The notes beneath the pieces are model-generated. The model did no database searches and had not been told where the DNA came from. It saw only the letters and a program-made list of their open reading frames with translations. The translations under genes were made by a program, and so were the position numbers. DNA of 27,316 bases from IMG/VR virus record IMGVR_UViG_2728369187_000003. One strand, written 5' to 3'. The stretch's first letter is position 1; each line of letters begins with the position of its first letter. Shown here piece by piece: positions 1 to 18,233 of the stretch. This DNA is from a virus. Lineage: Duplodnaviria; Heunggongvirae; Uroviricota; Caudoviricetes.

Positions 1-1026
1 TTACTTGGAATATTTTCTTGGAATATTTTCAGGTAACGGGACATCAAGTGTTGGTGAAACTTTAACCTTCCTGTCATAGATTAGCACTTGCCCTTCGGTT
101 TTGTGACCAGAGAAAAGTTGCTTATCCCGGCTGCTTCCTTCATAGTCTGAAATTCCTTTCGCCTTCAGATCATGAAAGGTGAAGTCGGTTAAAATACCTG
201 AAATTTTTCCAGCACGATTTCTTGCATCTACCCACATTTCGTTAAAGCCTTTGTACATATATCGGTTGCCGTATTGATTGCTGATCACATAGGCAGATTT
301 TGGTAACTGTTTTGCTTTTTCGATCGCTGCCTGTAATCGTGGGCTCCATGCTTTTATCTGTTTTTTTCCGGTTTTCCCTTGCTGGATGAATATCCCGTCG
401 TTTCCAATCTGTTCCCATTTCAGCGATAACACATCGGAAACCCTCGCTGCACACAGATAGGCAATTTCCATTGCGATAAAAACAGGAAGAGGTGCAACGC
501 TTAATACTGCCTGGTATTCTTTGTCGGTTACATATCGTTCGCGGTTTTTGGCCTTGAATTTACTTACACCTGCACATGGGTTAGCCTTCACGTACCCTCG
601 CTCATACCCCCAACTGTAAACACGGGACATACTGCTTTTTTCATGGTTGGCTTGCGTTTTACTCTGCTCCCCTCTTTTGTCCATGTATCGACGGATGTGT
701 TCTGGTTTTATGGAATCCGCTGGTACCTTACCGAATACGGCAAGCAACTTTTTTTGATGTTGCAGATAATCTTTTTGTGTTCTTGGACTAAGGTCACTGT
801 AATAGGCGCTGGCGAGGAATTTTTCCCACAAGCGACCGAATGTCATTGCACGATCGCGATTATTTACAGTTTCCTCATACTTTTTCCATAAAGCAGCTAA
901 ACCATCCTTGATGGCGGTTAGTGTGACAGATTCTCTGGATGTTGGTTTCCATACATAACTATATTTATTTGGGTATACATTTGGAGGTAATTTTTCGTGT
1001 TCAGGATTTTTCCTTCGTCTTCCCAT
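1..1026 (-). CDS. int: Phage integrase, tyrosine recombinase (lambda Int-like)
   Basis: 341-aa ORF; N-terminus MGRRRKNPEHEKLPPN closely resembles the lambda Int N-terminus as I recall it; start ATG overlaps the stop of the upstream small ORF (ATGA); stop codon sits at window positions 1-3, so attL would lie just outside the window. Confidence 0.9.
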   Translation of the reverse strand: MGRRRKNPEHEKLPPNVYPNKYSYVWKPTSRESVTLTAIKDGLAALWKKYEETVNNRDRAMTFGRLWEKFLASAYYSDLSPRTQKDYLQHQKKLLAVFGKVPADSIKPEHIRRYMDKRGEQSKTQANHEKSSMSRVYSWGYERGYVKANPCAGVSKFKAKNRERYVTDKEYQAVLSVAPLPVFIAMEIAYLCAARVSDVLSLKWEQIGNDGIFIQQGKTGKKQIKAWSPRLQAAIEKAKQLPKSAYVISNQYGNRYMYKGFNEMWVDARNRAGKISGILTDFTFHDLKAKGISDYEGSSRDKQLFSGHKTEGQVLIYDRKVKVSPTLDVPLPENIPRKYSK

Positions 1027-6794: not shown

Positions 6795-6865
6795 CTGACA
6801 ATAGCCATATCGAATCGCTTCCGGCAACTCGTGAGTAAAAAGATTCGGTATCAGAAGAGGTGAGT

Positions 6866-7936
6866 ATGGCTAACGCTTGGCTCAGATTATGGCATGACAT
6901 GCCAAATGACCCTAAGTGGCGAACAATTGCCAGGGTGTCAGGGCAGCCAATTGCAACAGTGATGGCAGTGTATATCCACCTCCTGGTGAGCGCGTCACGA
7001 AATGTCACGCGAGGTCACATTGATGTCACGACAGAAGATTTGGCAAGTGCGCTCGACGTGACAGAAGAGGTAATTGATTCAATTTTGCAGACGATGCAGG
7101 GGCGGGTACTTGATGGTGATTTAATCACTGGATGGGAAAAACGCCAGGTTCTTAAAGAGGACAACGGCAATATTTCGCAAACCGCAAAATCTCCTGCAGA
7201 GCGCAAGAGGGCGCAGCGAGAGAGGGAAAGAAAGCGGGAACAAAATGGCGATTGTCACGGCGCGTCACGAAATGTCACGCACATGTCACGACGAGTCACG
7301 ACAGATAAAGATACAGATAAAGATACAGATCAAGAAGATCAAAACACTATGGTCCATGGCGTAAAAAACGCCACGAACCAGGCAGGGGATGTTCAGACCG
7401 TCAATCTTGGTCAGCCAGCAGGCACGACACCGGAAGCCGATTCAGCGTATGCGCTGAAAGCCGATTCGGGCGCTGTGCAGCAGGTGATGACCGCAAGGCC
7501 GGAGCAATCACACCAACTGCAGCAGCCTGAAGCCGATTCCGCCATTCAGCGGGAAGCCGATCGGGTAGTCCCGGAAAACACCGGGCAGCCTGTGGGACGA
7601 GTGGATTATCCGGATGTGTTCGAACAGGTCTGGCGGGAATACCCGTTGCGTGCTGGGGCAAACCCGAAGAAATCCGCTTTCAGTGCTTGGAAGGCCAGAT
7701 TACGCGAGGGGGTGTCACCAGAGGCCATGCTGGATGGCGTGAGGCGTTACGCAAGATACCTTGCGGCTACCGGGAAAACGGGAACGGAATTTGTTCAGCG
7801 AGCAACGACGTTTTTTGGACCGGACCGGAATTTTGAAAACCCCTGGCTGCTCCCGGTAAGCGGCACGAACAACCAGCGTTGTGTGAATCATATTTCTGAA
7901 CCGGATACCGAAATTCCACCGGGCTTCAGGGGGTAA
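6866..7936 (+). CDS. Replication initiator (O-like) with origin iterons inside the coding sequence
   Basis: 356 aa from the ATG at 6866 (GAGG 5 nt upstream); occupies the O position after cro and the cII-like gene; two internal GTCACG iteron arrays and an AT-rich tandem repeat lie inside it. Confidence 0.65.
   Translation: MANAWLRLWHDMPNDPKWRTIARVSGQPIATVMAVYIHLLVSASRNVTRGHIDVTTEDLASALDVTEEVIDSILQTMQGRVLDGDLITGWEKRQVLKEDNGNISQTAKSPAERKRAQRERERKREQNGDCHGASRNVTHMSRRVTTDKDTDKDTDQEDQNTMVHGVKNATNQAGDVQTVNLGQPAGTTPEADSAYALKADSGAVQQVMTARPEQSHQLQQPEADSAIQREADRVVPENTGQPVGRVDYPDVFEQVWREYPLRAGANPKKSAFSAWKARLREGVSPEAMLDGVRRYARYLAATGKTGTEFVQRATTFFGPDRNFENPWLLPVSGTNNQRCVNHISEPDTEIPPGFRG
6991..7030. repeat. 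Iteron array 1: four GTCAC(G/A) repeats at roughly 10-bp spacing
   Basis: GTCACG at 6994, 7004 and 7025, GTCACA at 7014; the first 21 nt are identical to the start of array 2. Confidence 0.7.
7251..7330. repeat. Iteron array 2 (five GTCACG repeats) followed by an AT-rich tandem repeat; candidate origin of replication
   Basis: GTCACG at 7254, 7264, 7274, 7285 and 7295, then gataaagataca repeated about 2.5 times at 7302-7330; the architecture parallels ori-lambda inside gene O. Confidence 0.65.
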
Positions 7937-7976: not shown

Positions 7977-8399
7977 GTGGCAAAAGTTTTTACACAAGAA
8001 GAGCGAGAAAAAATTAAAGGGCAGGTTGTTGAACTCGTACGCCAGAGTGGGCGTGAGACGTTACGGCAACTGGAAGTCAAAACAGGTGCGACAAGATATC
8101 TGATGAGCGTTCTCGCAAGAGAGCTGGTTGCCAGCGGCGATGTATACAACTCTGGTTACGGGTTATTCCCGTCTGAACAGGCGCGTAAGGACTGGCAAAA
8201 TGCCCGTAAAAAGCTCTCAAGGGCAAAGCTGAAGAAACCATCTGCGGTTGATCCGGACCTTATCTGGTCATTACCTGACGGAGAAATACGTCGCTACGAC
8301 AGGCGTCAGAACATAATCTGTCGCGAGTGCCGGAAGAGTGAAGTTATGCAGCGCATATTGTCGTTTTATCAGGGGGATGTTCGGTATTTATTGAAGTGA
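7977..8399 (+). CDS. Hypothetical protein (140 aa) downstream of the replication initiator
   Basis: GTG start with AGGAGG 4 nt upstream; no recognisable helicase-loader features; last gene before the AT-rich island. Confidence 0.4.
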   Translation: MAKVFTQEEREKIKGQVVELVRQSGRETLRQLEVKTGATRYLMSVLARELVASGDVYNSGYGLFPSEQARKDWQNARKKLSRAKLKKPSAVDPDLIWSLPDGEIRRYDRRQNIICRECRKSEVMQRILSFYQGDVRYLLK

Positions 8400-8684: not shown

Positions 8685-9218
8685 ATGACAACCTGGGTGG
8701 AAGTTGTTGATACGGCTGTGAAGATTGGATTTGGTGGTATAATAACGCTGACAGGTACATTTATTATTTCAAAAATGAATCACAAACATGAATTTGATAA
8801 AGATAAAAGTCGTCGCTATTATGATTCATTAGAATCTGTAAGCACTCAAATTGAGGATATGACACATATATCCTTACGCTATTGGGCTTTGATAATTGAA
8901 TGGGTTAGAAATAAGGAACAAAAGGGATTGGATCTTACCAGAGAAAGGCAAGAGGAGTTAAATAAAACAAAATTAGATTTATTTGACAATTTTAAAAGCT
9001 TGACAGTTGCAGAGTCGAAGCTTTTGCTTTTAGGTTTAACTGACACATCAGTTGCTTTAAGAGACTACGGTGATTATTTAAAAGCAATGCGGAGAAATTA
9101 TTATGATGGCAAACCTGATATTAAGGAGTCAGATCTTGAAAATGTAAGGGTTACGTTACTTTACAAACGTAAAGTCCTGTTTGATTTTTTGTCTAGGGAT
9201 TATAAAAAAGGAATATAG
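8685..9218 (+). CDS. Hypothetical membrane-anchored protein (177 aa), island gene A
   Basis: AT-rich codon usage; one N-terminal hydrophobic segment (VKIGFGGIITLTGTFIISKM) followed by a charged, probably helical region; AGAGG upstream. Confidence 0.55.
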   Translation: MTTWVEVVDTAVKIGFGGIITLTGTFIISKMNHKHEFDKDKSRRYYDSLESVSTQIEDMTHISLRYWALIIEWVRNKEQKGLDLTRERQEELNKTKLDLFDNFKSLTVAESKLLLLGLTDTSVALRDYGDYLKAMRRNYYDGKPDIKESDLENVRVTLLYKRKVLFDFLSRDYKKGI

Positions 9219-9595: not shown

Positions 9596-10519
9596 ATGCC
9601 ATCACTAGATACTATAGTTTTAAACCTCCTAAGAGGGGCTGTTCCTGAGAATGCTGATGAACTTTGTCAGACCTGGAAGAGCTATAAACACACGGTCGAA
9701 CTTGCAGAGGATGCCCTAGGATCAACAATGAATGCAACTAGTAGGCGCATCGAGTTTGACTCTAAAACTATCGATTTCTTTTGGTTATTTGGGTTTAGTA
9801 CATGGTTTACGATTGAGACATATGCTCCAGCCCTAGTAAAAGCATGCTTACTAGGTGTGACGTTAGAGTCGGCTTTAGAATCTGATGAAGAACGTGGCCA
9901 ATTTGAACTAAATTATAAACAGCATTTGTATATTTCAAAGTCTTTGCTAAGCGTTGCGAATACGGCTGATATTACATGGCCTCAAGATATTCCTTTTCCA
10001 ACAGATGCGCGAGATAGTTTGAATAATATTCAAGAACAGGCTGTTTTTGATCTAGTAGCATTAGCATTGTCTTTTTCTATACTTCATGAGTATAAACATG
10101 TTCAAGCACGAGCCGAAGAAAAAAAACATGAAAATCCCCAAGAGAAGGATGAAGAAGAGTTAGCCTGTGACTCTTGGGCTCGTGAATATATAACTAAGGG
10201 CGTCGGAGTCTATGCTAAAAAAGCTGGGCATACCTATGAAGAGGTCATGCAAAAACGAGCAATGGGGATAACACTTGCCGCCTTTACTATACACGCTTTA
10301 ACATCAGATATCGATAAATGGGGTGGTGAAGAGTATCCATCTATAGCAGTAAGGATTCAAACAATGATAGGGGGGTACAACCTTTCAGATTCATCGCCCT
10401 TCTGGTGTTTTACAGCTTGTCTTCTCATCGCGGTGATGAGACAGGAAAACCGTAAGCTTGATTATAAAGCTACAACATATAAAGAGTTTGTTACTAGGCT
10501 CCTTTCGGAATTACACTAA
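9596..10519 (+). CDS. HExxH zinc-metallopeptidase-like protein (307 aa), island gene B
   Basis: TAAGGAG ribosome-binding site 8 nt upstream; HEYKH motif at residues 164-168 within FSILHEYKHVQ; a hairpin terminator follows. Confidence 0.6.
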   Translation: MPSLDTIVLNLLRGAVPENADELCQTWKSYKHTVELAEDALGSTMNATSRRIEFDSKTIDFFWLFGFSTWFTIETYAPALVKACLLGVTLESALESDEERGQFELNYKQHLYISKSLLSVANTADITWPQDIPFPTDARDSLNNIQEQAVFDLVALALSFSILHEYKHVQARAEEKKHENPQEKDEEELACDSWAREYITKGVGVYAKKAGHTYEEVMQKRAMGITLAAFTIHALTSDIDKWGGEEYPSIAVRIQTMIGGYNLSDSSPFWCFTACLLIAVMRQENRKLDYKATTYKEFVTRLLSELH

Positions 10520-10572: not shown

Positions 10573-10980
10573 ATTAGTCGTGACTTGATCTGACACATGG
10601 CTTTGAAAGATTAAGAGTTACTGGTATTGATATGGGGCCGAAGTGTTATACAATACAAGAGGTAATTCTCATATTCCATACTAACAATCCTATCATCAAA
10701 CACAACGCCGGTTACTTAAGGTGGCTGAGGAACTCAGCAACGTATCCGAAGCCAGCAAAGCCATGGTCCTTTCGCAGTAAGTTGCGTAAATAAGGTGTTT
10801 TTATCCCTTGAAGCATTCTACAAAGCCAGCTCCTCGCTCAAACAGACGTGCCTGTTCACCAATCTGCCCGCTTGGTATCAAGGGACGCCAGTAACGCGAT
10901 ACAGGCGATACAGGGTGAATTCCTTCCTTAACTGCCCTCACATCATCTTTAATAATAGTTTACCCTGATATAACGGATGA

Positions 10981-12360
10981 TCAGAAGTCCATCAGGTCAT
11001 CGAATTTCTGAGGTGGCTCTTGTTTTCGAACACTATCTCCCTGATGAATCTCCGTCTCACTTGTTTGGTATTTTACACCAGTAATTTTATGATAAGTCAT
11101 ACTGTTGGTTTTCAACAGTAGTGCATCATTTTTGTCATGCGAGGATGAAAATGAACCCATATGTCTCGGTTTTATTTGTTCCTCAACTATTAACTGAATT
11201 TCCGGAACAAAAGCATACTGGTCATCTTCGATGTGTTCATACATCTCAACATTATATCGGCGAGATTTATCTGCGGCATGCCTGACGCCGGAAGACTTAT
11301 TAAACAGAACGACATTATATCCTATCTCAGCATCCTCACCGTTGGCATCTACCTGGGTAGATTTAAAGCTGACACCATCAAGCTTAAATTTATTTCGGTC
11401 ACCTAGGTAATCGGCAACCACTTGGGTGATGAGGTAATCACTGTCCTGCCTTTTTCCAAAAGTAGGAAGCGTCAACTTACGGGAAAGCGTACTGAAAAAA
11501 ATCGCGCGCTCACTGGTTTTGCGAGTCTGAGGATCAAATTTACTACCTGAGCCGAAACTAATCGAGTCAAGGGCAGAAATGTCCAGCACTTTTAGCTCGC
11601 GTAACGGTACAAAACAGGCCGTTACTACAATACTGCCGACGGGCGGCCTTACTTCAGCAATTGCCAAATTCACTGAGGTTGCACCGTAAAATACTGAAAT
11701 CCCCTGTGCGTTCATACGGCCCGACCGAGCCAAAGTTGATGGGGGAGGTCCAAAATTTTTCTCGGGCTGCTCCAAGGCTTGCTTTACTTCCTCTTGGTCC
11801 TCAAAGACCCTTGCACGAAAAAGATGAACCTCATCAGTCAGAGTTTTTATCGGTGAATTACTGTCTCTGTTTTTTAGTTTATCGATATCACTGAAAAGTG
11901 AATCCAGGAAATCATTAACTTCACGGTTAAAATATCGTGTTTCTTTCATAAGGGAGTCAGTGGCTTTACTCCAGGTATGCGCAAGCTCTCCGCTATAGTG
12001 ATTTATGTGCCGATAAACAAACCCATCATTATACCGGATGTAGTCATAATCGTTATGCGGATTATATTCATCACAAAGAAATTCATAAATATCTTCAGCT
12101 ACGTCCCATTCGACGCCCAGTTCTCCGCAGATGACATCCTGCGCGCTATCACCGCGCCCGGAATCATAGATATCCTCATACATATCATAGTAGTACTCAA
12201 AAACCTCATTCATCATCTTGAGAATATATTTGAGGTGGATGTTTTTACGCTTCCTTTTGCAGTAAGAGCAAATCCGAACATTATTTCCGGTTTTTATTAT
12301 ATGCTGCATGACATATTTATCGTTCACGCATTTATGACAAATATACTTATCTTTCCACAT
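10981..12360 (-). CDS. Zinc-ribbon plus RES-like domain protein (459 aa), island gene C
   Basis: N-terminal CHKC...CSYC zinc-ribbon-like motif; central SGRMNAQGISVFYGATSVNLAIAEV fits the R-x9-Y-x10-E spacing I recall for RES-domain NAD-targeting toxins; convergent with gene B. Confidence 0.55.
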   Translation of the reverse strand: MWKDKYICHKCVNDKYVMQHIIKTGNNVRICSYCKRKRKNIHLKYILKMMNEVFEYYYDMYEDIYDSGRGDSAQDVICGELGVEWDVAEDIYEFLCDEYNPHNDYDYIRYNDGFVYRHINHYSGELAHTWSKATDSLMKETRYFNREVNDFLDSLFSDIDKLKNRDSNSPIKTLTDEVHLFRARVFEDQEEVKQALEQPEKNFGPPPSTLARSGRMNAQGISVFYGATSVNLAIAEVRPPVGSIVVTACFVPLRELKVLDISALDSISFGSGSKFDPQTRKTSERAIFFSTLSRKLTLPTFGKRQDSDYLITQVVADYLGDRNKFKLDGVSFKSTQVDANGEDAEIGYNVVLFNKSSGVRHAADKSRRYNVEMYEHIEDDQYAFVPEIQLIVEEQIKPRHMGSFSSSHDKNDALLLKTNSMTYHKITGVKYQTSETEIHQGDSVRKQEPPQKFDDLMDF

Positions 12361-12427
12361 TTTTTACCCACTCATCATCAGCTGATACAAGGTCACTTTC
12401 CTGCAATTTTATAATTAAATCAAGCAT
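12347..12427 (-). CDS. Candidate 26-aa upstream ORF overlapping the start of island gene C
   Basis: GGAGGGGG ribosome-binding site 8 nt upstream of the ATG; MLDLIIKLQESDLVSADDEWVKNVER*; its stop overlaps the gene C ATG. Confidence 0.3.
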   Translation of the reverse strand: MLDLIIKLQESDLVSADDEWVKNVER

Positions 12428-12706
12428 AAAAACCCCCTCCTCACCTCAATGCTTTCAGTGTAAAAATAATTAGTAATACGCTGTACTGGTAATAATTATG
12501 AACTTCCTCTTCTCGCTCAAAGCGGACTAGAAAGTTAGCTTGCGTCGGACTTGGCGTATTTAAAGAAGTGCTGGTGGTGACTGGTTGTTGTGTTCCATTT
12601 CTACAGAACAAAATCACAGAAACTATACCCAATAGTTGTATTGAATCACTGACGAGACAGCCTCATATTTATCAGGACTGGTGTACGTCCAATACAGGAG
12701 GTTGTG

Positions 12707-12796
12707 GTGCTGGTTCTCAAATGTGCGCTGGCTATTGCTGCTGTAATGGCAATTTATTGCCTTGCTGTTGTTCTTATGGATCGCCTTTCTGATTGA
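12707..12796 (+). CDS. Candidate 29-aa hydrophobic peptide
   Basis: AGGAGG 5 nt upstream of a GTG start; MLVLKCALAIAAVMAIYCLAVVLMDRLSD*; a single predicted transmembrane helix with charged ends. Confidence 0.35.
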   Translation: MLVLKCALAIAAVMAIYCLAVVLMDRLSD

Positions 12797-12897
12797 TTTT
12801 ATATTGGCGAGGTGACGTGAGTTAAGTAGAATTGCTGCGGGTGCTTGAGGCTATCTGCCTCAGGCATGAACACCAAAGGCAGATAGAGAAAAGCCCC

Positions 12898-14773
12898 AGT
12901 TAACATTACGCGTCCTGCAAGACGCTTAACATTAATCTGAGGCCAATTTCATGCTAGACACATGTAGGTTAGCCTCTTACGTGCCGAAAGGCAAGGAGAA
13001 GCAGGCTAGTGTTAACACCAAGCTGTAATGTCCCCTTTGAACCATTCTAAAATGTCCCCAGACAATTCTCTGGGGGATTTTTCATGATCAAAGAGACTGT
13101 TACGATGAGTCATAAGGAACTCCACCGACTTCAGATTATTCAGGAGTCAATTAATCGACATATTACTCAGGAACAAGCTGCGGCACGCATTGGCATTTCT
13201 ATTCGGCAGGTTAAACGTCTGGTGCAACGGTATAGAAATGAAGGGCCTTCTGGTCTGGTTTCCCACCGACGTGGAAAGCGTCCTAATAATTCCTTTTCTA
13301 CTGAATTCAGAGCAACAGTAATTTCACTCCTCAAAGGCCGTTACGCTGATTTTGGACCTACGTTTGCGTGCGAAAAATTGCGCGAGATACACGGTTTATC
13401 TTTATCCGTTGAAACTCTCAGAAAGTGGATGATAGAAGAGGGGTTATGGCGTGAACGCCGTCGTAAAATTGCCCGTATATATCAACGCCGCATGCGACGA
13501 CCATCTTACGGTGAACTGATCCAGATTGATGGCTCACCTCATGACTGGTTTGAAAATCGAGGCCCCAGATGTACACTGATCGTTTTCATTGATGATGCCA
13601 CCAGTGCGTTGATGGCGTTGCGTTTTGTGCCTGCTGAAACAACCCGGGCTTACATGGAAACCCTCCGGGGTTACCTTAATGATCATGGCGTACCGCTCGC
13701 TCTCTACTCTGATAGACACAGTATATTCAGGGTAAATAACCCAGAGCGGGAAGGTGAGCTGACCCAGTTCACTCGTGCGATAAAGACACTGGGCATCGAG
13801 CCAATCCATGCCAACAGCCCGCAGGCAAAAGGGCGGGTAGAGCGCGCCAATCAGACACTACAGGACAGGCTGGTCAAAGAAATGCGGCTTCAGAATATCA
13901 GTGATATTGAAACAGCAAATGCATGGTTGCCGACCTTTATTGAAGCCTATAACAACCGGTTCGCTACGTCGCCTCGTACTACTGATAATGCTCATCTTGA
14001 TGAGCACCATTCTGAAGAGGAACTGGGTTATATCTTCAGCCTACAGGCGAAGCGCGTTCTGTCTAAAAATCTCACTTTCCAGTACAAAAGCAGTGCGTTT
14101 CAGGTACGCAGTGAGGGCCGGGGATATCGACTTAGGCATTCGGTTGTTACTGTATGCGAGAACTTTGACGGTGAAATTAACGTTCTGTATGACGGGAAAG
14201 CGCTGGGCTGGGAAAAGTATGTTGATGGCCCGGAGCCTATACCACTGGATGATGAAAAGAGTGTCCATGAACGAGTGGATAATGCCCGTATTGATTTACG
14301 CTCAAAATACTATGTTAAACCTAAAGCTGACCATCCCTGGCTTACGCGCCGAACGCAAAGTCATCAGCAAGTTAAGCCCCCGAAGTTACCTAAAAAGAAG
14401 CCTGATCCCGATAAAAAAGATTGAAACCAAGATCGATTCGGTTGAGTGCATATCCATTCATAGGGTAGATTCTTAAGTCGCGTTTCTGGTGTTCATTTTC
14501 GGGTGGTTTGTTACTTGTTTTACCGGGGATATGCCAGAAACGCGCTGAGTCAGTCTGGGCGGTGCGCGTAATGAGGCGTTATGGTAAATAGCCTATGCTA
14601 ATGTCCGCTAAGAGCAAGAAGCGGAAGTTGGCAGTTTTGTGGACTGTCCCCACAAAAGTGACTACAGAAATAGTTGCAATTCATAATTGATCATGGGTTG
14701 TCAGTTAAACTCGTGGCGATTTAAATAGACTAATTGGGAGTGCGTCCATTACTTATATCTTGTAATGTTAACT
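12898..14773 (+). mobile_element. Insertion sequence carrying a DDE transposase (ends uncertain)
   Basis: The transposase gene is flanked by a 12-bp inverted match, AGTTAACATTAC at 12898-12909 and its reverse complement at 14762-14773; hairpin-forming inverted repeats sit inside both arms; no direct repeats found. Confidence 0.4.
13084..14424 (+). CDS. DDE transposase with N-terminal HTH (IS481/ISNCY-like, family not resolved)
   Basis: 446-aa ORF; N-terminal HTH-like region (ITQEQAAARIGISIRQVKRLV), central integrase-core-like region (IQIDGSPHDW...LIVFIDDATS...) and a basic C-terminal tail. Confidence 0.75.
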   Translation: MIKETVTMSHKELHRLQIIQESINRHITQEQAAARIGISIRQVKRLVQRYRNEGPSGLVSHRRGKRPNNSFSTEFRATVISLLKGRYADFGPTFACEKLREIHGLSLSVETLRKWMIEEGLWRERRRKIARIYQRRMRRPSYGELIQIDGSPHDWFENRGPRCTLIVFIDDATSALMALRFVPAETTRAYMETLRGYLNDHGVPLALYSDRHSIFRVNNPEREGELTQFTRAIKTLGIEPIHANSPQAKGRVERANQTLQDRLVKEMRLQNISDIETANAWLPTFIEAYNNRFATSPRTTDNAHLDEHHSEEELGYIFSLQAKRVLSKNLTFQYKSSAFQVRSEGRGYRLRHSVVTVCENFDGEINVLYDGKALGWEKYVDGPEPIPLDDEKSVHERVDNARIDLRSKYYVKPKADHPWLTRRTQSHQQVKPPKLPKKKPDPDKKD

Positions 14774-14820
14774 ATCAGAAATGATACAAAGATAATATGT
14801 CTTTAAAGAAAAGGCTGATG

Positions 14821-14846
14821 GCGAAAAGTGGCCCGATGAGGGCCAC
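14821..14846 (-). terminator. Rho-independent terminator downstream of flxA
   Basis: GTGGCCC-GATGA-GGGCCAC hairpin followed on the minus strand by TTTTCGCC. Confidence 0.55.
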
Positions 14847-14860
14847 AATACGGCTGTCAC

Positions 14861-15193
14861 TTAGACGTAAATATCAATGGTGCCAGCGGTATTTGTATCG
14901 TCTTTTTTCTCTTCTTTTTTATCAGGCTGAACTGTCGCGTCTTCATTCTTTTTCTCTGCCTGCTGCCTTAACAACTGCTCCAGTTGAGCCCAGAGGCTTT
15001 CAATTTGCTTCTGTACCAATGCAGCCATTTCTTTTTTCTGCTGTGTCGTCATCCCCTCTTCCGATGAGATTTTCACAAGCTTTTCAGTCAGCACCTGAAT
15101 TTGTCTTGTGATTTTGGCTATTTCTGATGTTCCTTCCGGGGCGGAGTTGTTTGAAATAACGGTTGAGGTATTTCCCTGAATTGTGACAGACAT
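14861..15193 (-). CDS. flxA: FlxA-like protein (110 aa)
   Basis: 110-aa ORF; AAGGAG ribosome-binding site; preceded by a near-consensus sigma-28 promoter; matches the Qin flxA position and length from memory. Confidence 0.7.
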   Translation of the reverse strand: MSVTIQGNTSTVISNNSAPEGTSEIAKITRQIQVLTEKLVKISSEEGMTTQQKKEMAALVQKQIESLWAQLEQLLRQQAEKKNEDATVQPDKKEEKKDDTNTAGTIDIYV

Positions 15194-15216
15194 AGATTTC
15201 TCCTTTTAAAAAAGCA

Positions 15217-15243
15217 CTATCGGCATGCACAAAAAAATCTTTA
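15217..15243 (-). promoter_or_regulatory. Sigma-28 (FliA) type promoter for flxA
   Basis: Minus strand reads TAAAGATT-N-GCCGATAG with a 15-nt spacer between TAAA and GCCGATA, against the consensus TAAA-N15-GCCGATAA. Confidence 0.6.
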
Positions 15244-15395
15244 ATCGTATTTCTTGTGTCATTAATTGTTTGATGTTCAGATTGTTTTCCTCGCGGGCTG
15301 GCGCGCCTCAGAAAGTAAAGCTTGTTGACAGGGGTAAACGTTCGGCAATAATTTTCTGCCGCATGCGGGTGTTGCATAAAACGTGTTACGTTCCT

Positions 15396-15701
15396 TTATC
15401 GACAGGTCAGGTCACCGCTCACCCGCCGACGAGAAAGCAACACTGACATGCTAAAGCAAAAAATAGATGAATAAGTTGAGTTGTGCATATGTAGCCTGAC
15501 CGTCACAAAGTATATGGTGTCTGTACCAGTAAGATGATGGCCGGACTCTTTAAAAACGAGCTGACCTGCACAATACAGGATGGACTTAGCAATGGCTGCT
15601 CCTGGCAGAAAGCGGACAGTGATCACCGTTCTTACGACTACTTTCTGACTTCCTTCGTGACTTGCCCTAAGCATGTTGTAGTGCGATACTTGTAATGACA
15701 T
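15396..15701 (-). CDS. YdfV-like hypothetical ORF (101 aa)
   Basis: Length and position between relB and flxA match the K-12 ydfV annotation as I recall it; no other support. Confidence 0.3.
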   Translation of the reverse strand: MSLQVSHYNMLRASHEGSQKVVVRTVITVRFLPGAAIAKSILYCAGQLVFKESGHHLTGTDTIYFVTVRLHMHNSTYSSIFCFSMSVLLSRRRVSGDLTCR

Positions 15702-15714
15702 TTGTAATTACAAG
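15662..15714 (+). promoter_or_regulatory. relBE promoter and operator
   Basis: TTGCCC-N17-GATACT followed by the palindromic CTTGTAATGACATTTGTAATTACAAG, overlapping the -10 element and just upstream of the relB ribosome-binding site. Confidence 0.6.
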
Positions 15715-15725
15715 AGGTGTAAGAC

Positions 15726-15965
15726 ATGGGTAGCATTAACCTGCGTATTGACGATGAACTTAAAGCGCGTTCTTACGCCGCGCTTGAAAAAATGGGTGTA
15801 ACTCCTTCTGAAGCGCTTCGTCTCATGCTCGAGTATATCGCTGACAATGAACGCTTGCCGTTCAAACAGACACTCCTGAGTGATGAAGATGCTGAACTTG
15901 TGGAGATAGTGAAAGAACGGCTTCGTAATCCTAAGCCAGTACGTGTGACGCTGGATGAACTCTGA
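15726..15965 (+). CDS. relB: RelB antitoxin
   Basis: 79 aa MGSINLRIDDELKARSYAALEKMGVTPSEALRLMLEYIADNERLPFKQ..., near-identical to E. coli RelB from memory; stop overlaps the relE start. Confidence 0.95.
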   Translation: MGSINLRIDDELKARSYAALEKMGVTPSEALRLMLEYIADNERLPFKQTLLSDEDAELVEIVKERLRNPKPVRVTLDEL

Positions 15966-16252
15966 TGGCGTATTTTCTGGATTTTGACGAGCGGGCACTA
16001 AAGGAATGGCGAAAGCTGGGCTCGACGGTACGTGAACAGTTGAAAAAGAAGCTGGTTGAAGTACTTGAGTCACCCCGGATTGAAGCAAACAAGCTCCGTG
16101 GTATGCCTGATTGTTACAAGATTAAGCTCCGGTCTTCAGGCTATCGCCTTGTATACCAGGTTATAGACGAGAAAGTTGTCGTTTTCGTGATTTCTGTTGG
16201 GAAAAGAGAACGCTCGGAAGTATATAGCGAGGCGGTCAAACGCATTCTCTGA
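15965..16252 (+). CDS. relE: RelE mRNA interferase toxin
   Basis: 95 aa MAYFLDFDERALKEWRKLGSTVREQLKKKLVEVLESPRIEANKLRGMPDCYKIKLRSSGYRLVYQVIDEKVVVFVISVGKRE..., matching RelE from memory. Confidence 0.95.
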   Translation: MAYFLDFDERALKEWRKLGSTVREQLKKKLVEVLESPRIEANKLRGMPDCYKIKLRSSGYRLVYQVIDEKVVVFVISVGKRERSEVYSEAVKRIL

Positions 16253-16323
16253 ACCAAAGCATGACATCTCTGTTTCGCACCGAAGGTGACACTTCTGCTT
16301 TGCGTTGACAGGAGAAGCAGGCT

Positions 16324-16473
16324 ATGAAGCAGCAAAAGGCGATGTTAATCGCCCTGATCGTCATCTGTTNNNNNNNNNNNNNNNNNNNNNNNNNNNNNNN
16401 NNNNNNNNNNNNNNNNNNNNNNNNNNNNNNNNNNNNNNNNNNNNNNNNNNNNNNNNNNNNNNNNNNNNNNNNN
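16324..16473 (+). CDS. hokD: Hok-family toxin (hokD/relF-like), interrupted by an N-run
   Basis: Begins MKQQKAMLIALIVIC, the Hok N-terminus, then runs into the N-run; the true 3' end is not visible and the 66-aa track ORF is an artifact of the gap. Confidence 0.7.
16370..16473. other. Run of 104 N (assembly gap or masked sequence)
   Basis: Directly visible; lies inside the hok-like gene. Confidence 1.
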
Positions 16474-16585
16474 GCGTTTGAAGTTCTGGACGGTGCCGGA
16501 ATAGAATCAAAAATACTTAAGTAGCGCGCAGGGATAAGAGGGATGGTCCCTTAAAGGGGAGAGCTAATTATCCGGAAGGATTCTG

Positions 16586-16837
16586 ATGATGAACATCGAA
16601 GAACTGCGTAAAATTTTTTGTGAAGATGGCCTCTATGCTGTGTGCGTTGAAAATGGAAATCTTGTTAGTCATTACCGCATTATGTGTTTGCGAAAGAATG
16701 GGGCTGCGTTAATTAATTTTGTGGATGGTCGAGTGACAGACAGATTTATCTTGCGCGAAGGTGAGTTTGTCACTTCATTACAGGCACTGAAAGAGATCGG
16801 AATAAAAGCAGGCTTTTCAGCTTTTGCAGAAGAATAA
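16586..16837 (+). CDS. rem: Rem-like protein (83 aa)
   Basis: 83-aa ORF downstream of hokD, matching the Qin rem position and length from memory; GGAAGGA upstream. Confidence 0.55.
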   Translation: MMNIEELRKIFCEDGLYAVCVENGNLVSHYRIMCLRKNGAALINFVDGRVTDRFILREGEFVTSLQALKEIGIKAGFSAFAEE

Positions 16838-16903
16838 ACTCATCTACAATCTTGCGCGGGGCTGAACTCCCGCTGAGTAACACCGTGCCACCGGAGAAAA
16901 CCG

Positions 16904-17182
16904 ATGGCACGCAACGTAAAATATTACAATTCTGATAATTCGCCCGTTCTTGCCTGCACGCACGAGCGGTATTCTCACGCATTCAAGTCTGAATGGTTCC
17001 AACACCCTCCATGCACTGAAGAGCAGGCTGAATGGATAATTCAGTGTTACCGCAGGCGCGGATACGAGGTTAAGAAAGCCCTTAGTCTCGACTACCGTCA
17101 CTGGATAATCTCAGTCAGATTGCCTTACTCCGAACGCCCACCACGTGCGTCCCGCACTTTCCAGCAACGGATCTGGAGGTAA
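16904..17182 (+). CDS. Hypothetical protein (92 aa)
   Basis: ORF with a GGAG upstream; its stop lies inside the ydfU ribosome-binding site; unknown function. Confidence 0.4.
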   Translation: MARNVKYYNSDNSPVLACTHERYSHAFKSEWFQHPPCTEEQAEWIIQCYRRRGYEVKKALSLDYRHWIISVRLPYSERPPRASRTFQQRIWR

Positions 17183-17183
17183 C

Positions 17184-18233
17184 GTGCGGGTATTACTTAG
17201 ACCTGTTCTGGTGCCTGAGCTTGGGCTGGTGGTCCTTAAGCCGGGCCGTGAATCCATACAGATATTTCATAATCCTCGAGTGCTGGTGGAACCGGAACCA
17301 AAAAGCATGCGTAATCTGCCATCCGGAGTCGTTCCTGCCGTTGGCCAGCCGCTGGCGGAAGACAAAACATTGCTGCCGTTTTTTAGTAACGAACGGGTGA
17401 TTCGTGCTGCTGGCGGCGTTGGCTCATTGTCTGACTGGCTATTACGTCATGTTACATCCTGCCAGTGGCCTAATGGCGATTACCATCACACTGAAACAGT
17501 CATTCACCGTTATGGTACCGGCGCAATGGTGTTGTGTTGGCACTGCGACAACCAACTGCGTGACCAGACATCGGAATCACTGGAGCTGCTTGCTCAACAA
17601 AATCTGACAGCATGGGTGATTGACGTCATCCGTCACGCAATAAGCGGTACGCAGGAGCGGGAATTATCTTTGGCTGAATTATCCTGGTGGGCGGTCTGCA
17701 ATCAGGTGGTGGATGCACTACCTGAGGCTGTATCGCGTCGTTCGCTGGGATTACCAGCGGAAAAAATCTGCTCGGTGTACCGCGAAAGCGACATCGTACC
17801 GGGAGAGCAGACCGCCACCAGCATATTGAAACAACGCACAAAAAATCTTGCACCGTTGCCTTACGCCCACCAGCAACAAAAACTACCACAGGAAAAGATG
17901 GTGGTAAGCATCACCGTTGATCCAGAGTCTCCGGAATCTTTCATGAAGCTGCCTAAACGTCGCCGCTGGGTTAAGGAGAAATACACACGTTGGGTTAAGA
18001 CACAGCCGTGTGCTTGCTGCGGTATGCCAGCCGACGATCCGCATCATCTGATTGGTCACGGGCAGGGCGGAATGGGAACAAAAGCACATGATCTCTTTGT
18101 GTTGCCTTTGTGCAGAAAGCATCACAACGAGCTGCATACGGATACAGTGGCATTTGAAGAGAAGTATGGCTCCCAACTGGAGCTGATATTTCGTTTTATC
18201 GATCGCGCGCTGGCAATTGGCGTACTGGCGTAA
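17184..18233 (+). CDS. ydfU: YdfU-like DUF968 protein with C-terminal Cys/His cluster
   Basis: GTG start with GGAGG 4 nt upstream gives 349 aa starting MRVLLRPVLVPELG; C-terminal CACCGMPADDPHHLIGHGQGG...CRKHHNELH resembles a zinc-binding or HNH-like motif. Confidence 0.65.
   Translation: MRVLLRPVLVPELGLVVLKPGRESIQIFHNPRVLVEPEPKSMRNLPSGVVPAVGQPLAEDKTLLPFFSNERVIRAAGGVGSLSDWLLRHVTSCQWPNGDYHHTETVIHRYGTGAMVLCWHCDNQLRDQTSESLELLAQQNLTAWVIDVIRHAISGTQERELSLAELSWWAVCNQVVDALPEAVSRRSLGLPAEKICSVYRESDIVPGEQTATSILKQRTKNLAPLPYAHQQQKLPQEKMVVSITVDPESPESFMKLPKRRRWVKEKYTRWVKTQPCACCGMPADDPHHLIGHGQGGMGTKAHDLFVLPLCRKHHNELHTDTVAFEEKYGSQLELIFRFIDRALAIGVLA

Follow-up and report, generated by a model that had tools for sequence, protein, structure and literature searches.

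The fusion of a zinc ribbon, a HEPN/RES-NTD1 module and a RES domain, in that order, was catalogued in 2013 by Anantharaman et al. (PMC3710099, Table 2; Pfam PF18870), who recorded that some NTD1–RES fusions bear the zinc ribbon as an extra N-terminal element, and that fusions of such N-terminal domains to toxin domains have architectures like those of abortive-infection proteins. A protein of this kind, aRES from E. coli UC5 (IMG gene 2729545185), is the lead protein of a January 2026 preprint by Osterman et al. (bioRxiv 10.64898/2026.01.28.702374). Here, we describe a gene that very probably encodes the same protein in its natural surroundings, a 27,316-nucleotide stretch of DNA from a tailed virus (Caudoviricetes; IMG/VR record IMGVR_UViG_2728369187_000003), which is referred to as the window throughout. 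The features of the window are collected in Table 1.

Osterman et al. apply the name aRES to stand-alone proteins of 300–600 amino acids (aa) that contain a RES domain together with PF18870, the latter detected by hhsearch on a multiple sequence alignment with a probability above 80%, and find them in about 4% of genomes. (The Methods section “Detection of putative aRES systems” prints the RES accession as PF00808; RES is PF08808, and this is probably a typing error.) In E. coli MG1655, UC5 aRES confers protection from a diverse range of phages, and growth is arrested. NAD+ is depleted in aRES cells after T7 infection, and ADP-ribose-1''-phosphate (ADPR-1P) is the product that accumulates in the infected cells and the major product when NAD+ is added to their lysate. 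The lysate of infected cells was still active after three washes over a 3-kDa filter, which suggests that activity does not require a small metabolite in free form. The phage NAD+-rebuilding pathway NARP1 is ineffective against aRES, whereas NARP2 is effective; NARP1-AP, in which NARP1 is extended by a Macro-domain ADPR-1P phosphatase, overcomes aRES, and the Adpp phosphatase rescues NARP1. Small phage proteins, aRad1, bind the aRES active site and block it. Point mutations in the active site abolished defence, and the plasmid table (Table S4) lists R182A, R184A, R215A, Y225A, E236A and S334A. A search of the available literature for later papers on aRES found none, and RES proteins are not mentioned in the study of P2/P4 hotspots by Rousset et al. 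(2022).

The open reading frame (ORF) in the window starts with ATG, ends with a TGA stop codon at 10981–10983, and encodes 459 aa. An initial annotation, made from the DNA letters alone, had given the same protein without a strand; the gene lies on the minus strand. Residues 1–399 are identical to UC5 aRES at all 399 residues listed in Table S4 of the preprint, and both aRES cloning primers are found without a mismatch at its termini, 660 F at 12327–12360 (minus) and 659 R at 10981–11008 (plus). At the DNA level, the gene is 100% identical to KJB12_RS09155 of strain KV7 (protein WP_021575732.1). The protein has the RES domain, a length within the authors’ range and the stand-alone arrangement of an aRES, in addition to its identity with a tested member. 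The data on defence, NAD+ loss and ADPR-1P were obtained with UC5 aRES, which matches the window ORF over every residue that the preprint lists. We are therefore confident that the window gene encodes aRES, a single-protein defence of the abortive-infection type carried by a lambdoid prophage. As such, it is a protein that has already been named and tested experimentally.

The RES-like core proposed by the initial annotation corresponds to a Pfam RES match at residues 207–361 (E = 5.2e-14, 53 bits against a cut-off of 23.2), well beyond chance. At the N-terminus, the two motifs that had been read as a zinc ribbon, CHKC (C8, C11) and CSYC (C31, C34), are both present. In an alignment of 34 members reaching down to 30% identity (A1), every member has C31 and C34, and the conservation of C8 and C11 is 90% or more; in a second alignment (A2) all four cysteines are invariant. 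The ribbon is predicted to bind zinc. A single-sequence hmmscan with PF18870 matched residues 29–147 (E = 4.3e-4, 21.1 bits), under the Pfam cut-off of 27.4 bits. Of the 34 sequences in A1, 27 match PF18870 with E ≤ 1e-3 (best 2e-10) and all match RES, so the N-terminal assignment, and with it the suggested resemblance to the N-terminal modules of HEPN and RES proteins, holds at the level of the family. Furthermore, an E. coli UC5 gene is listed in the authors’ Table S2 and the window sequence is given for it in Table S4, so the sequence passed their filter. No HEPN family was present among the Pfam matches of the protein: the domain that defines the HEPN ribonuclease fusions sharing NTD1 is absent, and the catalytic domain C-terminal to NTD1 is RES.

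An AlphaFold2 model built on the 34-sequence alignment had a mean predicted local distance difference test (pLDDT) of 81.4 and a predicted template modelling score of 0.70. Its best Foldseek match in the PDB was the P. putida Res toxin, with a probability of 0.99. Neither the family profile nor the RES region on its own retrieved a RES toxin when searched by sequence against PDB chains; the link to the solved RES toxins thus comes from fold comparison only, since sequence methods could not reach those structures. The N-terminal part of the model matched winged-helix domains, which hints weakly that the NTD1 module may be winged-helix-like.

The peptide quoted in the initial annotation, SGRMNAQGISVFYGATSVNLAIAEV, occupies residues 213–237 and places R215, Y225 and E236 at the spacing R-x9-Y-x10-E. 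These are the right residues, but the spacing that the annotation gave for the RES core is off by one compared to MbcT of M. tuberculosis, in which R47, Y58 and E69 are spaced x10/x10 (PMC6436930). The residues R27, Y28, R47, Y58, E69 and S126 are functional positions in MbcT (PMC6436930). Judging by the order of the motifs, R215 would correspond to MbcT R47, Y225 to Y58, E236 to E69 and S334 to S126, while R184 is probably the counterpart of R27, the “region 1” arginine of ADP-ribosyltransferases (PMC6436930). The positions invariant in A1 include C31, C34, R182, R184, G214-R215-M-N217, Y225-G226, E236, Y309, Q313, D328-G329, F332, Q336 and N349; S334 (at least 90% conserved) sits in the invariant context F332-x-S-x-Q336. 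All three residues that the annotation had singled out are among those mutated by Osterman et al., and the outcomes that it had predicted for NAD+ and for the alanine mutants are those reported for UC5 aRES.

A search of a collection of 5.8 billion proteins returned 759 homologues. Among the best 120, most were full-length, at about 450–480 aa, and came from Proteobacteria, Bacteroidetes and Actinobacteria. A genome scan gave 382 species-representative matches in all and extended the family to other phyla and to one archaeal metagenome-assembled genome. No model in NCBIfam, PADLOC-DB v2.0.0 (2023) or PHROGs matched the protein, so these libraries do not yet flag aRES as a defence gene.

Several points weigh against the identification of the window gene as a functional aRES. 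The comparison with Table S4 spans residues 1–399, and identity at residues 400–450 is verified just indirectly, through the 3' primer and the single full-length ORF. The PF18870 score of the protein itself falls below the Pfam cut-off, as noted above. The experimental source is a preprint; its washed-lysate result would also be compatible with a tightly bound small ligand, and the section on it describes no assay of uninfected aRES lysate. Finally, there was no convincing promoter or terminator for the native prophage copy: a promoter scan around the gene and its flanks did not rise above the shuffled expectation, and no minus-strand terminator was found downstream of aRES.

For UC5 aRES, experiments are reported in which NAD+ is phosphorolysed to nicotinamide and ADPR-1P in an infection-dependent manner, after which growth stops and the phage fails to propagate. 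The mechanism very probably at work in the window protein is as follows. In the uninfected cell, aRES is present in an inactive state. Upon phage infection, the RES domain phosphorolyses NAD+ at the nicotinamide–ribose bond, yielding nicotinamide and ADPR-1P. The collapse of the NAD+ pool stops growth, and the phage cannot multiply; NARP1, the common phage pathway for rebuilding NAD+, is unable to recycle the product because it is phosphorylated. The zinc ribbon and the possibly winged-helix-like NTD1, presumably the sensor or regulatory part of the protein, may act as a sensor or autoinhibitory module that stands in for the antitoxin of a RES–Xre pair, and the activating signal would probably be a macromolecule, or else a stable alteration of the protein, and not a free small metabolite. 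The text of the preprint mentions neither a trigger nor the zinc ribbon or the C-terminal region.

The C-terminal extension, which the initial annotation had already pointed out, may also take part in this switch. In the AlphaFold2 model, it consists of three long β-strands (residues 369–378, 381–390 and 414–425), a disordered linker (397–408) and a flexible tail. The extension can be aligned across the family, with L414 at least 90% conserved, but it is the least conserved part of the protein: the mean column identity is 0.37 for residues 362–430 and 0.27 for the tail, compared to 0.60 for the RES domain. The window protein ends in ...DDLMDF, its last nine residues (451–459) being encoded at 10984–11010 (minus). 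Of 109 full-length homologues, 56 end in an aromatic residue, against a compositional expectation of about 11; the ending DF is the commonest (27 times), followed by PF (10) and EF (5). An aromatic end of this kind may plug the NAD+ pocket in cis or serve as a docking motif. A plug is attractive because known inhibitors of RES proteins enter the active site in a comparable way, MbcA with its C-terminus (PMC6436930) and aRad1 with a loop and a tryptophan. We rate it as a lead only: the last residues of aRES have a pLDDT below 50, so that their placement in the model is not confident, and an aromatic end is missing from about half of the homologues.

These observations bear on a different account of the activation step alone, in which the N-terminus does not sense the phage at all, and either the shut-off of the host removes a labile host factor or the C-terminal tail that plugs the NAD+ pocket is displaced or cleaved. 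The enrichment of aromatic ends and the behaviour of the known inhibitors would fit the latter variant, and the defence of aRES against diverse phages would fit a general cue; the low confidence of the tail and the homologues without an aromatic end argue against this account, which we consider unlikely. Also unlikely is the combined proposal that the zinc ribbon and NTD1 directly bind phage nucleic acid or protein and that the C-terminal extension with its aromatic end fills the NAD+ pocket until this sensor is engaged, which would amount to a RES–Xre pair in one chain.

We also considered whether aRES could be the orphan toxin of a type II RES–Xre toxin–antitoxin system, serving persistence or the maintenance of a plasmid or prophage, and kept in check by an antitoxin from another locus or from a small gene that is not annotated. 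The catalytic domain carries the R/Y/E/S active-site residues and shares its fold with the toxins MbcT, NatT, ParT and Res, and RelBE and hok-type toxin–antitoxin loci lie in the same prophage. In line with the initial annotation, no Xre-type (COG5642/DUF2384) or other helix-turn-helix gene lies next to aRES in the window, and the small ORFs that flank it have no Pfam match. Neighbouring ORFs of 60 aa or longer, taken from the 4 kb around the gene, were clustered over 113 loci (90 groups at 85% identity), a procedure that would miss shorter antitoxins and RNA antitoxins; no neighbouring family occurred in more than 10 of the 90 groups, and the recurring families were phage structural genes found in subsets of the loci. 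With no adjacent partner gene and none conserved among the ORFs clustered, aRES is not half of a RES–Xre pair. Nor does it have the small, single-domain size of such toxins: the chains of the solved RES toxins are 144–250 aa long, while aRES has two extra modules, with about 165 additional residues at the N-terminus and about 100 at the C-terminus. In addition, the 1.8-kb aRES cassette moves alone (see below), and the gene is reported to be expressed by itself in MG1655 without toxicity, NAD+ dropping only after infection. Taken together, an orphan toxin is very improbable. The idea that aRES is a protein or nucleic-acid ADP-ribosyltransferase with a specific phage or host target (as ParT is for Prs), NAD+ use being a side effect, deserves just as little credence, since the depletion affects NAD+ in bulk, infected cells build up ADPR-1P, which is also the major product in lysate, NARP2 and NARP1-AP are reported to bypass the defence on restoring NAD+, and the combination of an ADPR-1P-specific phosphatase with NARP1 cancels it, which ties the phenotype to the NAD+ pool.

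Table 1. Coordinates of aRES, its domains and active-site codons, and other features of the window.
Feature	Position	Strand	Basis
aRES gene (very probably a 459-aa stand-alone antiphage RES-domain NAD+ phosphorylase)	10981..12360	minus	ORF listing and translation
Predicted zinc ribbon, residues 1–40 (C8-x2-C11 ... C31-x2-C34)	12241..12360	minus	Cysteine conservation, pLDDT 80–94
HEPN/RES-NTD1 module, about residues 41–165, helical with short strands, possibly with a winged-helix-like core	11866..12240	minus	
RES catalytic domain (ADP-ribosyltransferase fold), about residues 166–361	11278..11865	minus	
C-terminal extension, residues 362–459	10984..11277	minus	Secondary structure and pLDDT of the AlphaFold2 model
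Codons R182-A183-R184, strand β-1	11809..11817	minus	R182 and R184 invariant in A1; R182A and R184A in Table S4 of the preprint
Codons R215 to E236 (R215, Y225, E236)	11653..11718	minus	All three invariant in A1; alanine mutants in Table S4
Codon S334, “S” of the R-E-S motif	11359..11361	minus	At least 90% conserved; S334A in Table S4
Mobile single-gene cassette: aRES flanked by 235 nt on the 3' side and about 167 nt on the 5' side	10746..12527		blastn breakpoints against L002, L089, L090, L092 and L095
ORF matching by position the KV7 integrase gene (frameshifted in KV7)	1..1026	minus	
Replication initiator	6860..7936		
Ren-like DUF977 gene	7977..8399		
Lit-family phage-exclusion gene	9596..10519	plus	PADLOC Lit E = 1.3e-18, nearly full length; Pfam Peptidase_U49 30.5 bits
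Insertion sequence ORF (IS1202-like ISEsa1 transposase)	13084..14424	plus	
RelB (79 aa) and RelE (95 aa), 1-nt overlap	15726..16252	plus	Pfam RelB E = 1e-32; ParE_toxin E = 2e-13

The window is part of a lambdoid prophage, which also holds a RecE-like exonuclease and a CI-like repressor, with DUF968, a homologue of the lysozyme gene and other late-region sequence further to the right. The aRES gene is located in the accessory region past the replication genes and is convergent with the Lit homologue, which ends 461 nt from the 3' end of aRES and is labelled “phage exclusion protein Lit family protein” in the KV7 RefSeq annotation. Two single-gene defences of the abortive-infection type thus adjoin in this region. 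Just upstream of Lit, at 8685..9218 (plus), lies a gene for a 177-aa hypothetical protein with a hydrophobic stretch at its N-terminus, as seen by eye (VKIGFGGIITLTGTFIIS). This protein belongs to no Pfam or PHROG family, has a weak PADLOC match to “2TM effector” (E = 0.004) and co-occurs with Lit and aRES in KV7-type prophages; it could be a third accessory or defence gene. The other flank of aRES is occupied by a conserved hok-type leader region, followed by an insertion sequence element.

The window shares 100% identity over 2 kb with strain KV7, and we considered whether it might be KV7 itself. This was rejected: the similarity ends at 13008, where hokD starts in KV7. In the window, hokD seems to have been displaced or interrupted by the insertion sequence. 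Qin-like prophages of other strains share the interval 12627..17200, including the ISEsa1 transposase, flxA, ydfV and relBE, the last an ordinary Qin-type locus. The window is thus a mosaic, and none of the 5,426 complete E. coli genomes searched contains its full arrangement.

The aRES gene itself is present in 12 of these 5,426 genomes. In four of the 12 (H1–H4), it has the same setting as in the window, while the other eight share only a 1.78-kb segment, which is about 97% identical between E. coli loci that have different prophage sequence around it. Its occurrence in such different surroundings indicates that aRES moves as a single-gene cassette. In locus L002, the one of these eight that was examined, the cassette sits at the end of a prophage next to paoD, after pinE and tail-fibre assembly genes. 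Copies at 93–95% identity were seen in other viral contigs and in Rouxiella, and 28 viral contigs in IMG/VR carry members of the aRES family. A homologue with 41% identity in Aeromonas caviae (GCA_033902385.1; L007, 5001..6392) is carried by a P2-like prophage, with gpA/umuDC on one side and ogr/portal on the other. This is the interval in which P2 carries its tin/old accessory genes. In Rahnella (GCA_047394085.1; L003, 6443..7903), a 486-aa FRG-domain protein is encoded 84 nt downstream of the aRES homologue on the same strand, a pairing seen only in the Rahnella lineage. Frg is another clade of the ADP-ribosyltransferase superfamily in prokaryotic immunity (PMC9503650).

Working from the sequence by itself, the initial annotation was right about the biochemistry and the key residues of a defence protein that has been confirmed by experiment. 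There is no longer any value of discovery in the protein as such, since aRES has already been named, and its phenotype, its reaction product and the phage counter-measures are known. The present analysis places the tested gene in its natural setting, where it is rare, is borne on a 1.8-kb cassette between unrelated prophages and lies beside a Lit exclusion gene. It also adds the possible winged-helix-like character of the N-terminal module and the enrichment of aromatic residues at the C-terminal end, two weak leads on the activation switch.

Of the systems described so far, UC5 aRES has the same architecture and stand-alone status as the window protein, with no detectable difference over residues 1–399 and the primers. 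An aRES-family protein of K. pneumoniae, reported to be protective, has the same architecture and shares about 46% of 389 aligned residues, the GRMNA, FYGA and EVRP motifs among them; it is a diverged orthologue whose phage spectrum may differ. The catalogue of 2013 contains exactly the domain order of the window protein, but it was purely computational, and an RNase activity was predicted for RES at that time.

The two-gene toxin–antitoxin systems differ from aRES in organization. MbcT (Rv1989c of the M. tuberculosis MbcTA system; PDB 6FKG; PMC6436930) is a single-domain chain of 183 residues that is neutralized by the adjacent antitoxin MbcA, the C-terminus of which plugs the active site. 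In contrast, aRES has no antitoxin, carries the zinc-ribbon and NTD1 modules and the C-terminal extension, and is switched on by phage infection; the sequence similarity between the two is too low for phmmer or the family profile. NatT (NatRT of P. aeruginosa; PDB 8QNL; PMC11535050), Res (Xre–RES of P. putida; PDB 9R35) and ParT (PDB 6D0H) likewise belong to two-gene toxin–antitoxin systems associated with persistence or stasis. According to its PDB entry, ParT is a toxin that ADP-ribosylates Prs, which would be a different reaction from that of aRES. The preprint also lists other NAD+-depleting defences, among them DSR1, DSR2, type I Thoeris and Nezha, which resemble aRES at the level of the cell: the loss of NAD+ upon infection starves the phage and can stop the growth of the cell or kill it. 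These systems use SIR2, TIR and SEFIR folds that are unrelated to aRES, and their product is ADP-ribose rather than ADPR-1P, so NARP1 overcomes the systems that produce ADP-ribose but not aRES.
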